The notes: generated from the letters alone by a model not told the origin. DNA of 64,000 bases from Escherichia coli (GCF_024298765.1 NZ_CP101210.1); one strand, 5' to 3'. Counted from the first letter of the stretch, positions 2-2,823 are shown. Numbers and translations are program-made.

Positions 2-214
2 GTCAGCGACAGTGCCAATCCTGTTCATCATTATGGTCATGTGCAGGGAGGCTACAGTGTGCCACTGATTATTACCGCCAGTGACATAACGTCTCATCAG
101 CCCGTCAGTAGAAAAATCAGTGCCCGTCATTTCGCAGGTATTTTTCAGTGGATGAACGGTATTTGTACTGAAAATATACCGCCATTCAATCCGCTGACAG
201 ACGAAGATAATTAA
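2..214 (+). CDS. hypothetical protein, 3' fragment; frame open from window start, stop TAA at 212-214 directly abutting IS5
   Basis: Hand translation of frame 2 gives 70 sense codons then TAA; no family recognised; could be chance. Confidence 0.25.
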   Translation, partial: VSDSANPVHHYGHVQGGYSVPLIITASDITSHQPVSRKISARHFAGIFQWMNGICTENIPPFNPLTDEDN

Positions 215-1409
215 GGAAGGTGCGAATAAGCGGGGAAATTCTTCTCGGCTGACTCAGTCATTTCATTTCTTCATGTTTGAGCCGATTTTTTCTCCCGTAA
301 ATGCCTTGAATCAGCCTATTTAGACCGTTTCTTCGCCATTTAAGGCGTTATCCCCAGTTTTTAGTGAGATCTCTCCCACTGACGTATCATTTGGTCCACC
401 CGAAACAGGTTGGCCAGGGTGAATAACATCGCCAGTTGGTTATCGTTTTTCAGCAGCCCCTTGTATCTGGCTTTCACGAAGCCGAACTGCCGCTTGATGA
501 TGCGAAACGGGTGCTCTACCTTGGCACGGATGCTGGCTTTCATGTATTCGATGTTGATGGCCGTTTTGTTCTTGCGCGGATGCTGCTTCAAGGTTTTTAC
601 CTTGCCGGGACGCTCGGCGATCAGCCAGTCCACATCCACCTCGGCCAGCTCCTCGCGCTGTGGCGCTCCTTGGTAGCCGGCATCGGCTGAGACAAATTGC
701 TCCTCTCCATGAAGCAGATTACCCAGCTGATTGAGGTCATGCTCGTTGGCCGCGGTGGTGACCAGGCTGTGGGTCAGGCCACTCTTGGCATCGACACCAA
801 TGTGGGCCTTCATGCCAAAGTGCCACTGATTGCCTTTCTTGGTCTGATGCATCTCCGGATCGCGTTGCTGCTCTTTGTTCTTGGTAGAGCTGGGTGCCTC
901 AATGATGGTGGCATCCACCAAAGTGCCTTGGGTCATCATGACGCCTGCTTCGGCCAGCCAGCGATTGATGGTCTTGAACAATTGACGGGCCAGTTGATGC
1001 TGCTCGAGCAGGTGGCGGAAATTCATGATGGTGGTGCGATCCGGCAGGGCGCTATCCAGGGATAATCGGGCAAACAGGCGCATGGAGGCGATTTCGTACA
1101 GGGCATCTTCCATGGCACCGTCGCTCAGGTTGTACCAATGCTGCATGCAGTGAATACGCAGCATGGTCTCCAGCGGATAGGGCCGTCGGCCATTGCCCGC
1201 CTTGGGATAAAACGGCTCGATGACAGCGGTCATATTCTGCCATGGCAGAATCTGCTCCATGCGGGAGAGGAAAATCTCTTTTCGGGTCTGACGGCGCTTA
1301 GTGCTGAATTCACTATCGGCGAAGGTGAGTTGATGGCTCATGATGTCCCTCTGGGATGCGCTCCGGATGAATATGATGATCTCATATCAGGAACTTGTTC
1401 GCACCTTCC
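215..1409 (-). mobile_element. IS5 insertion sequence, 1195 bp
   Basis: Termini GGAAGGTGCGAATAAG (215-230) and CTTGTTCGCACCTTCC (1394-1409) form the IS5 inverted repeats; length matches IS5; transposase inside. Confidence 0.9.
361..1341 (-). CDS. insH: IS5 transposase InsH
   Basis: 326-aa [40 protein letters not shown]... matches IS5 transposase from memory. Confidence 0.9.
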
Positions 1410-2823
1410 CTAGTGGTTAAAGTGGCAGCACTGATGACTTAAGCGATATTGTCTTTGTATACCAGATGAATATCTGCTCCTCGCTCATAGCAGACTTTTG
1501 CATAGGTTCTTTTCCTAAAATAGCATGACATTTGTTTCAAAATTAGCCTGTAAGTCAAGAAAATACTTGGAGAATAATAATCTAGGCATTGGTAGCAACG
1601 ATAAATATCTACATAACCGATATTATCGAGTTACTAAATTGATGTGTTCCGGTAGATGAACAAAATGGTAGATCCTTCTAGAAACAAATAGAGTGTGGAT
1701 GAGGTAACCTGACTCAGCCAATTTATTGAGTCCGTTGAGCATCTGATCGGTTAATCTCTGAGAAAGAGTTTTCAGACAGATTCATTTTCTAGAATTATTT
1801 TTACTCATCAAACAAGGATGATTTTAATTTAGGTTTATTACTATAATTATATTTATTCTTTATATATTCTTTATTCACTCCCTTTTTCATACAATCTCTA
1901 TTGTTATTTACTTCCTGTCTTCACTCACTCTCAATCTTTACACATTCCATTAGTATTACTCTTGTTATCGTATTCACTCCATCCCTCAATCATAACTACT
2001 GTAACTCATATGATGTTCAGGTAAGTTATTCTCTACTACGCTATTGTTGATATTCATCTATTCTCATCTTCAGTAAAACAGTAATTGATTCTAATTTATC
2101 CATTATGAACCGTATTTGCTTAACAATGATTGTTTATCTGAAGTGTTTTAACTATTCTGGTGAACATCAATTTCTCTGTCATTACTGATTAACTGAATGC
2201 TTACTCTTTAATAAGGTATCCATTATTCTGTAACGATTAGCCGAGCAGGGTAAATAACAGAATTAATAGAGTGAATTTCTGATTGTGTTTGTTCGTTCCT
2301 GATTATCTTGTATTTTAAACAAAATGAAAATTATCCATCCATGGTATGTTTCATTCTGGTACCGTGTACCCGTTAACGTTCATATCTTGAACATGAGTTG
2401 TTTTTAACAGATAAAATGAGTGCGTGTAAGTTTATTGGGTTACAGGTATCGTGTTGGCCTTGTACACGGTTTTTTAGAACCATTGAGAGCAAGTTTGTAA
2501 TTTATGATGGTGATTAGTCGTAATATGTTTCTTGAACTTCTGATCGTGGGTTTTTATCGCATATTTTGCAGTATTTCGTGATGTTTATTGATTCTGTATT
2601 TTATTCACTCCTCGTTTATCTCATCTCTTTAGCTAATACCATCAGATAATCCATTTATTTCTGCACAACGCTACGTGTCGTTAATAACCGACGTATCCAT
2701 TCTGTTACAGCATGCCTGATAAATACCGTCTGTAAGTTATTACCGTTTTAGATCTGATTATGAGCGAAAGCATTAATTCGTTTACAGCACTTAAAACGTC
2801 ATTAACTTTCAGGAGTCATCAGC

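Follow-up and report, generated by a model that had tools for sequence, protein, structure and literature searches.

An IS5 element with unequal flanks at the truncated end of a tRNA-Phe island of Escherichia coli, most probably left by a deletion between tandem islands

The YTAR target of the insertion sequence (IS) IS5 was confirmed by Lee et al. (2016) for 220 new insertions, and in mutation-accumulation lines of Escherichia coli this element, which hops locally, is the one found most frequently at IS-bounded deletions (PMC5009759). The commonest route to an IS5 deletion in these lines is recombination between two direct copies, although, as Lee et al. point out, recombination between copies and a single aberrant event are indistinguishable from the product (PMC5009759). 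A second system of relevance here are the tandem arrays of genomic islands at the tRNA-Phe genes pheV and pheU, in which a P4-type integrase lies beside the tRNA gene and a 19-bp repeat marks the distal boundary of the island. We analyzed a stretch of 64,000 nucleotides from E. coli (GCF_024298765.1, NZ_CP101210.1), referred to at its full length as the window, which carries such an island at pheV and, at the other end of this island, a complete IS5 element bordered by TTAA on its left and by CTAG on its right. We conclude that this IS5 is a single element left behind by a rearrangement, which was most probably a deletion within a tandem island array at pheV (probability roughly 0.6).

Compared with IS5 as described (IS5 family, IS5 group), the window copy has the same length of 1195 bp, as do the copies in K-12, Santai, TUM12355 and 8GC, the same 16-bp terminal repeats, an intact transposase gene for 326 amino acids, and YTAR flanks. 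It differs in that its flanks are not one duplicated target and in that it is 94.2% identical to the K-12 copy of equal length. Since it is only one nucleotide apart from the copy in strain Santai, we regard it as an ISKpn26-like isoform; homologous copies carry the RefSeq label 'IS5-like element ISKpn26 family transposase'. The 16-bp terminal repeat has two matches in the entire window, both at the ends of the IS5, where 0.02 would be expected by chance. The transposase open reading frame (ORF) matches the NCBIfam profile NF033581 ('IS5 family transposase') with 366.8 bits (cutoff 140), and its predicted product is a single DDE transposase of the IS5 family. The unequal flanks, which a preliminary description of this DNA had reported, were confirmed at the boundaries listed in the table. 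Both tetranucleotides fit the YTAR consensus, as a random 4-mer does in 1 of 64 cases. In three comparator copies read by the same script, one and the same YTAR tetranucleotide stands on both sides, namely TTAG in TUM12355 and CTAA in Santai as well as in K-12, so that the flanks of the window copy are a real departure from the norm. An identical 4-bp duplication describes a simple insertion event; its absence here is the mark of the rearrangement and leaves the identity of the element untouched.

Either flank occurs without IS5 at a place of its own. For the left flank, five fetched genomes have an uninterrupted sequence ...ataaTTAAcctgtt... downstream of a yjgX-like phosphoethanolamine-transferase pseudogene, with ...ataaTTAAcctgttatgg..., ...GATAATTAACCTGTT... 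and ...GATAATTAACCTGTTATGG... as further readings of the continuation. For the right flank, eight fetched genomes have an uninterrupted sequence ...gcagagCTAGtggtt..., always after a TIR-domain gene and in a tRNA-Phe island, the further readings of the sequence preceding this flank being ...aaaagagcagagCTAGtggtt..., ...GAGCAGAGCTAGTGGTTAAAG... and ...AAAAGAGCAGAGCTAGTGGTT.... The similarity of the window to these empty-site alleles ends exactly after TTAA and before CTAG, that is, at the termini of IS5. The junctions were searched for in 5,426 complete E. coli genomes by megablast, using 300-bp queries that spanned them, and by scans for exact 40-41-mers, which covered metagenome contigs for both junctions and species-representative genomes for the left junction. 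In none of the 5,426 genomes (0/5,426) were the left and right flanks contiguous without IS5. Neither IS5 junction was found in the complete genomes or the metagenome contigs, nor was the left junction found in the species-representative genomes. An apparent 92% match of TUM12355 to the joined flanks was rejected, as the right site is empty in that genome and its IS5 lies 420 bp beyond this site, which makes a different junction. The two flanks derive from two different, non-adjacent sites, and each of them is a bona fide IS5 target. Each junction is an IS5 terminus on a YTAR site, which speaks for genuine transposition of IS5 at both sites and not for random breakage. The separate empty sites support the earlier suggestion that the element was involved in a deletion or recombined with another copy of IS5; an allele with contiguous flanks, which would have contradicted it, was absent from the 5,426 genomes.

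The left flank is the 3' end of the phosphoethanolamine-transferase pseudogene, here designated PEtN'. Window positions 1-214 are 100% identical to 'phosphoethanolamine transferase' pseudogenes that are annotated with an 'internal stop' in many E. coli genomes. The ORF at 2-214, which had been noted to end at the junction, is real. The proposal that the IS5 event explains this end is, however, unsupported, because the same TAA stop pre-exists in the IS5-free alleles of strains 165, YZMc10-2, H9 and CT282, which are 100% identical to the window over 1-214 and hold the same AATTAA. In an alignment with intact paralogues, which run 28 codons further, positions 209-214 read AATTAA versus AATGAA, corresponding to a G-to-T nonsense change. 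The nonsense change predates the IS5 insertion and made TGAA into the TTAA target that IS5 used.

The right flank belongs to an island that lacks its distal end. Window positions 1410-48198 are 100.0% identical to a region of strain ECJXMCRH7 (NZ_CP067342.1, 4302587-4350713), apart from about 1.3 kb that is extra in ECJXMCRH7. The ECJXMCRH7 island sits at pheU, with dsbD-dicD-pheU on one side and cadC on the other, while the window island sits at pheV, which suggests recent movement from strain to strain or between the two identical genes for tRNA-Phe. To the left of CTAG, ECJXMCRH7 has, in this order, the TIR-domain gene, a module resembling CP4-57 (its genes being of the GTPase, antirestriction, RadC and CbtA/CbeA types), relE/parD, the 19-bp tRNA-Phe repeat and cadC. 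In six relatives the repeat is found to the left of CTAG at a distance of 13.4 kb. The distal island end that it marks abuts chromosomal yghD in Ecol_517 and FDAARGOS_1287, and in E16002, O177:H21 and 8GC it borders on an older island's integrase. In the window the distal direct repeat (attR) was not found, and since the repeat occurs only at pheV, the island must be truncated at CTAG with its attR end lost. The distal 13.4 kb and the att repeat are absent. Missing as well is the TIR-domain gene, the immediate left-hand neighbour of CTAG in every intact island (for instance at 24255-24959 of locus L006 and 7133-7837 of locus L004). In ECJXMCRH7 this gene is annotated merely as a shorter ORF of 339 bp. 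In locus L006 the segment from relE/parD to the TIR-domain gene spans 11740-25122. The window shares with the known tandem arrays the P4-type integrase beside the tRNA gene, but it is without the distal repeat, the neighbouring integrase and the 13.4 kb, and IS5 fuses the truncated island to the pseudogene of a neighbouring island.

The arrangement of the same components in relatives provides the basis for a possible history of this junction. Tandem arrays in which the integrase of an old island is followed by the repeat and by relE...TIR-CTAG were directly observed in E16002, O177:H21 and 8GC, the old island being KpLE2-like in 8GC. In KpLE2-like islands, PEtN' normally follows the integrase as the first gene. 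PEtN' lies beside int-pheV in strain 4FM, and in CT282, which shares the window backbone (100.0% over 15.9 kb), PEtN' with its TTAA lies 8.8 kb from pheV in the window orientation, with int'-tia-PEtN2-AAA-int between PEtN' and pheV (PEtN2 being a paralogue). A chimeric PEtN'+int query counted up to 558 genomes, possibly including hits to PEtN2, in which a phosphoethanolamine-transferase gene adjoins a full integrase, but not in tandem with the island. The components of the presumed ancestor are thus seen separately, as PEtN'...int-pheV in CT282 and as int, direct repeat (DR) and relE...TIR-CTAG in E16002.

In the history that we favour, a resident KpLE2-like island would have carried PEtN' next to, or a few kb from, its integrase and pheV, as in 4FM and CT282. 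A tRNA-Phe island of about 61 kb, identical to the pheU island of ECJXMCRH7, would then have integrated at pheV, giving the order ...PEtN'(TTAA)...int_old-DR-relE/parD-CP4-like module-TIR gene-(CTAG)-YagK...int_new-pheV. IS5 would next have entered one of the two YTAR sites by normal transposition. Either a second copy at the other site, in the same orientation, would have recombined with the first, or one aberrant or intramolecular transposition would have joined the free end of the element to the second site. In both cases all DNA between TTAA and CTAG would be lost and one IS5 would remain with one flank from each site. The loss would amount to about 15 kb from a resident island of the 4FM type, 22 kb from one of the CT282 type and 28 kb from one of the YZMc10-2 type, these sizes being taken from relatives. 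Among the lost features would be the integrase of the old island, the att repeat of 19 bp, relE/parD, toxin-antitoxin genes of the cbtA/cbeA type and the TIR-domain gene. The tandem ancestor, the cis-deletion topology and the molecular route are what we infer. As in the study of Lee et al., recombination between two copies and a one-step event are not separable by the present data (PMC5009759). The outcome resembles the deletions bounded by IS5A and IS1A in mutation-accumulation lines in the single IS at the junction, in flanks that stem from two YTAR sites, and in an inferred loss of kb to tens of kb of prophage- or island-type DNA (PMC5009759). It differs from them in that the window is from a natural isolate and that the topology and the size of the loss (about 15-28 kb) are derived from relatives, neither the parental state nor the two-copy intermediate being observed.

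Several observations weigh against a deletion in a tandem array. The left flank in the window comprises 214 bp only, so that the chromosomal place of PEtN' is not fixed by the window, and in strain H9 the same 214 bp are found, identical, in a PEtN' at leuX. The order of the two sites is reversed in array types such as those of YZMc10-2, strain 165 and 1223, where CTAG comes first and PEtN' follows about 23 kb to its right, and a simple deletion from that order does not give the observed join. The predicted ancestor PEtN'-int'-tia-PEtN2-AAA-int-DR-relE... was not found with an 11.4-kb chimeric query (PEtN'...int of CT282 plus DR-relE of E16002), which returned only pap-tia variants whose apparent full coverage is a paralogue artefact. 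Nor did the searched collections contain an intermediate with IS5 at either site and its own duplication, a transient intermediate still being possible. Finally, the window IS5 lacks the mosaic structure by which a recombination of two copies could be proven; being one nucleotide apart from a regularly inserted copy, it is uninformative in this respect. Strain 104, APEC O2-211 and CT282, which share the window backbone, were rejected as direct parents because their pheV islands are different mosaics.

This last point also bears on a replacement, in which a resident IS5 at TTAA would have recombined with an IS5 at CTAG on incoming DNA, with a second crossover in the backbone to the right of pheV and no tandem intermediate. 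Such an event would leave the same product at the junction as a deletion, and it fits both the very different mosaics in the pheV islands of strains with the window backbone and the recent horizontal movement suggested by a 100.0% identical island in an unrelated backbone position (pheU of ECJXMCRH7). It requires, however, that IS5 pre-existed at exactly both sites in two genomes, and neither insertion occurs in the 5,426 genomes. The tandem arrays, on the other hand, are directly observed in relatives, so that the deletion route has fewer unobserved states. We therefore consider replacement unlikely, but worth keeping in mind.

It is also rather doubtful that the DNA was moved rather than lost, either because two IS5 copies gave rise to an inversion or a translocation or because the element transposed intramolecularly; an IS5 with the reciprocal flanks would then be located outside the window. 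The window has one IS5, and neither a second copy nor the reciprocal flanks were found within its 64 kb, so that a reciprocal junction could sit elsewhere; moreover, PEtN' and the CTAG site are far apart on opposite strands in CT282 and probably, from positions only, in CM2. Nevertheless, an exchange between a pheV-linked PEtN' and a pheU-borne island would place yjdC and dsbD beside the tRNA gene, where the window has yqgA and speC, and further rearrangement would be needed. Since the tRNA gene of the window retains its pheV neighbours, we rejected inversion involving the islands at pheV and pheU as a simple explanation. We attach a similarly low likelihood to a more specific version of the one-step route, in which an aberrant or break-repairing IS5 transposition without target duplication (of the 'IS-Del' type) would have been retained because the loss of attR and of the neighbouring integrase locked the newly acquired island in place. 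As a further possibility, the IS5 in the AT-rich stretch upstream of the YagK/YfjJ gene may alter the expression of downstream island genes.

IS5 is a multicopy repeat of 1.2 kb and as such a classic source of collapsed assemblies. Two copies, one flanked by TTAA/TTAA and one by CTAG/CTAG, could have been collapsed with the DNA between them dropped, and both junctions are indeed unique to the window sequence. The contiguous 64 kb nevertheless cross several other IS remnants without obvious breaks, and the sequence shows no sign of misassembly. Real IS5-bounded deletions are, moreover, common (PMC5009759), and we regard an assembly artefact as very unlikely. Even less probable is a junction formed by a tandem duplication or a circle. 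If the CTAG site had been about 23 kb to the left of TTAA in the same orientation, as in the YZMc10-2, 165 and 1223 type, TTAA-IS5-CTAG would be expected between two copies of the segment. YZMc10-2 has the order CTAG...YagK...IS66...AAA...nanYX...PEtN'-TTAA, with which 165 and 1223 are compatible, and IS elements have been reported at the junctions of large duplications (bioRxiv 10.1101/2024.06.02.596822). The sequence to the right of IS5, however, matches the YZMc10-2 segment only up to 10345. Beyond this point scr and further genes lead to pheV, neither PEtN' nor IS5 recurs, and the duplication was rejected for this departure. A simple insertion whose 4-bp duplication later mutated has practically no likelihood left: TTAA and CTAG differ at positions 1 and 4 only, but beyond the flanks the sequences are unrelated loci in every IS5-free allele examined, with no genome contiguous, and these empty-site alleles exclude it.

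Table. Positions of the IS5 element, its flanks and associated island features in the window.
Feature	Position	Strand	Basis or remark
PEtN', 3' end of a yjgX-like phosphoethanolamine-transferase pseudogene, premature TAA stop at 212-214	1-214	+	sequence identity
Left flanking tetranucleotide TTAA (YTAR), overlapping the PEtN' stop codon	211-214		flank reading and empty site
Complete IS5 element, ISKpn26-like isoform	215-1409	-	1195 bp
Left terminal inverted repeat GGAAGGTGCGAATAAG	215-230	+	exact match
IS5 transposase gene, intact, 326 amino acids	361-1341	-	ORF and NF033581 profile match
Right terminal inverted repeat GGAAGGTGCGAACAAG	1394-1409	-	one mismatch to the left repeat
Right flanking tetranucleotide CTAG (YTAR)	1410-1413		flank reading and empty site
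AT-rich non-coding stretch upstream of the YagK/YfjJ-family gene, now the truncated island end	1410-2823		composition and comparison
YagK/YfjJ-domain gene, first intact gene right of the junction	2824-3390	+	annotated WP_001126801.1 in the 100%-identical loci L004, L005 and L006
Island integrase adjoining the tRNA gene, proximal island end	46744-47958	-	ORF; homologous position annotated
Island att repeat, 3' 19 nt of tRNA-Phe, TGGTGCCCGGACTCGGAAT	48105-48123	-	single occurrence in the window
tRNA-Phe (pheV), followed by yqgA and speC	48105-48180	-	tRNA call and backbone match to yqgA and speC

The AT-rich stretch to the right of IS5 has a GC content of 33% and 22.6 YTAR sites per kb, compared to 47% and 7.8 per kb for the whole window, and it is a hotspot for IS insertion. 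Independent IS5 copies are present in TUM12355 at the window equivalent of 1830-1833 (TTAG duplication) and in the homologous stretch of Santai (CTAA duplication), and JNEC-KY178 has an insertion of the IS1 family in the same stretch, as judged from annotation only. The three IS5 copies of the window, TUM12355 and Santai all have the same orientation relative to the downstream YagK/YfjJ gene. A further IS5 is present in strain 8GC (locus L005, NZ_CM136786.1, 11730-12924), beside a nanM fragment; its flanks CTGT and CAAG are neither identical nor YTAR, and it is probably another rearranged IS5 junction.

At the other end of the island, the position of the integrase is annotated as 'tyrosine-type recombinase/integrase' (WP_001218742.1) in ECJXMCRH7, strain 104 and YZMc10-2. 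Within the island, by homology to annotated identical loci, truncated tssF and tssG pseudogenes (type VI secretion) are followed by remnants of IS66-family tnpC/tnpB/tnpA and a DDE-transposase fragment (5515-10366), representing several generations of decay. The positions 24580-25383 and 34887-36560 hold a gene for a Tia/Hek-like outer-membrane protein (about 76% DNA identity to tia) and a phosphoethanolamine-transferase gene for 557 amino acids, respectively, the latter named only by the annotation of homologous loci. If the pseudogene at 1-214 is taken into account as well, islands bearing the pair of tia and a transferase gene seem to have been stacked repeatedly at this tRNA gene.

The junction represents a known kind of event, an ordinary scar of an IS-bounded rearrangement, and raises no new biological question. 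Its value lies mainly in the annotation of this locus, where the pheV island is truncated and really ends at the IS5, which accounts for the missing distal att repeat. About 15-28 kb are probably absent here, with the TIR-domain gene, two toxin-antitoxin pairs and an integrase, and because the distal att site is gone the island can probably no longer be excised by its own integrase. The locus is thereby a clean example of IS5 eroding and fusing tandem islands, and of a nonsense mutation that created an IS5 target.

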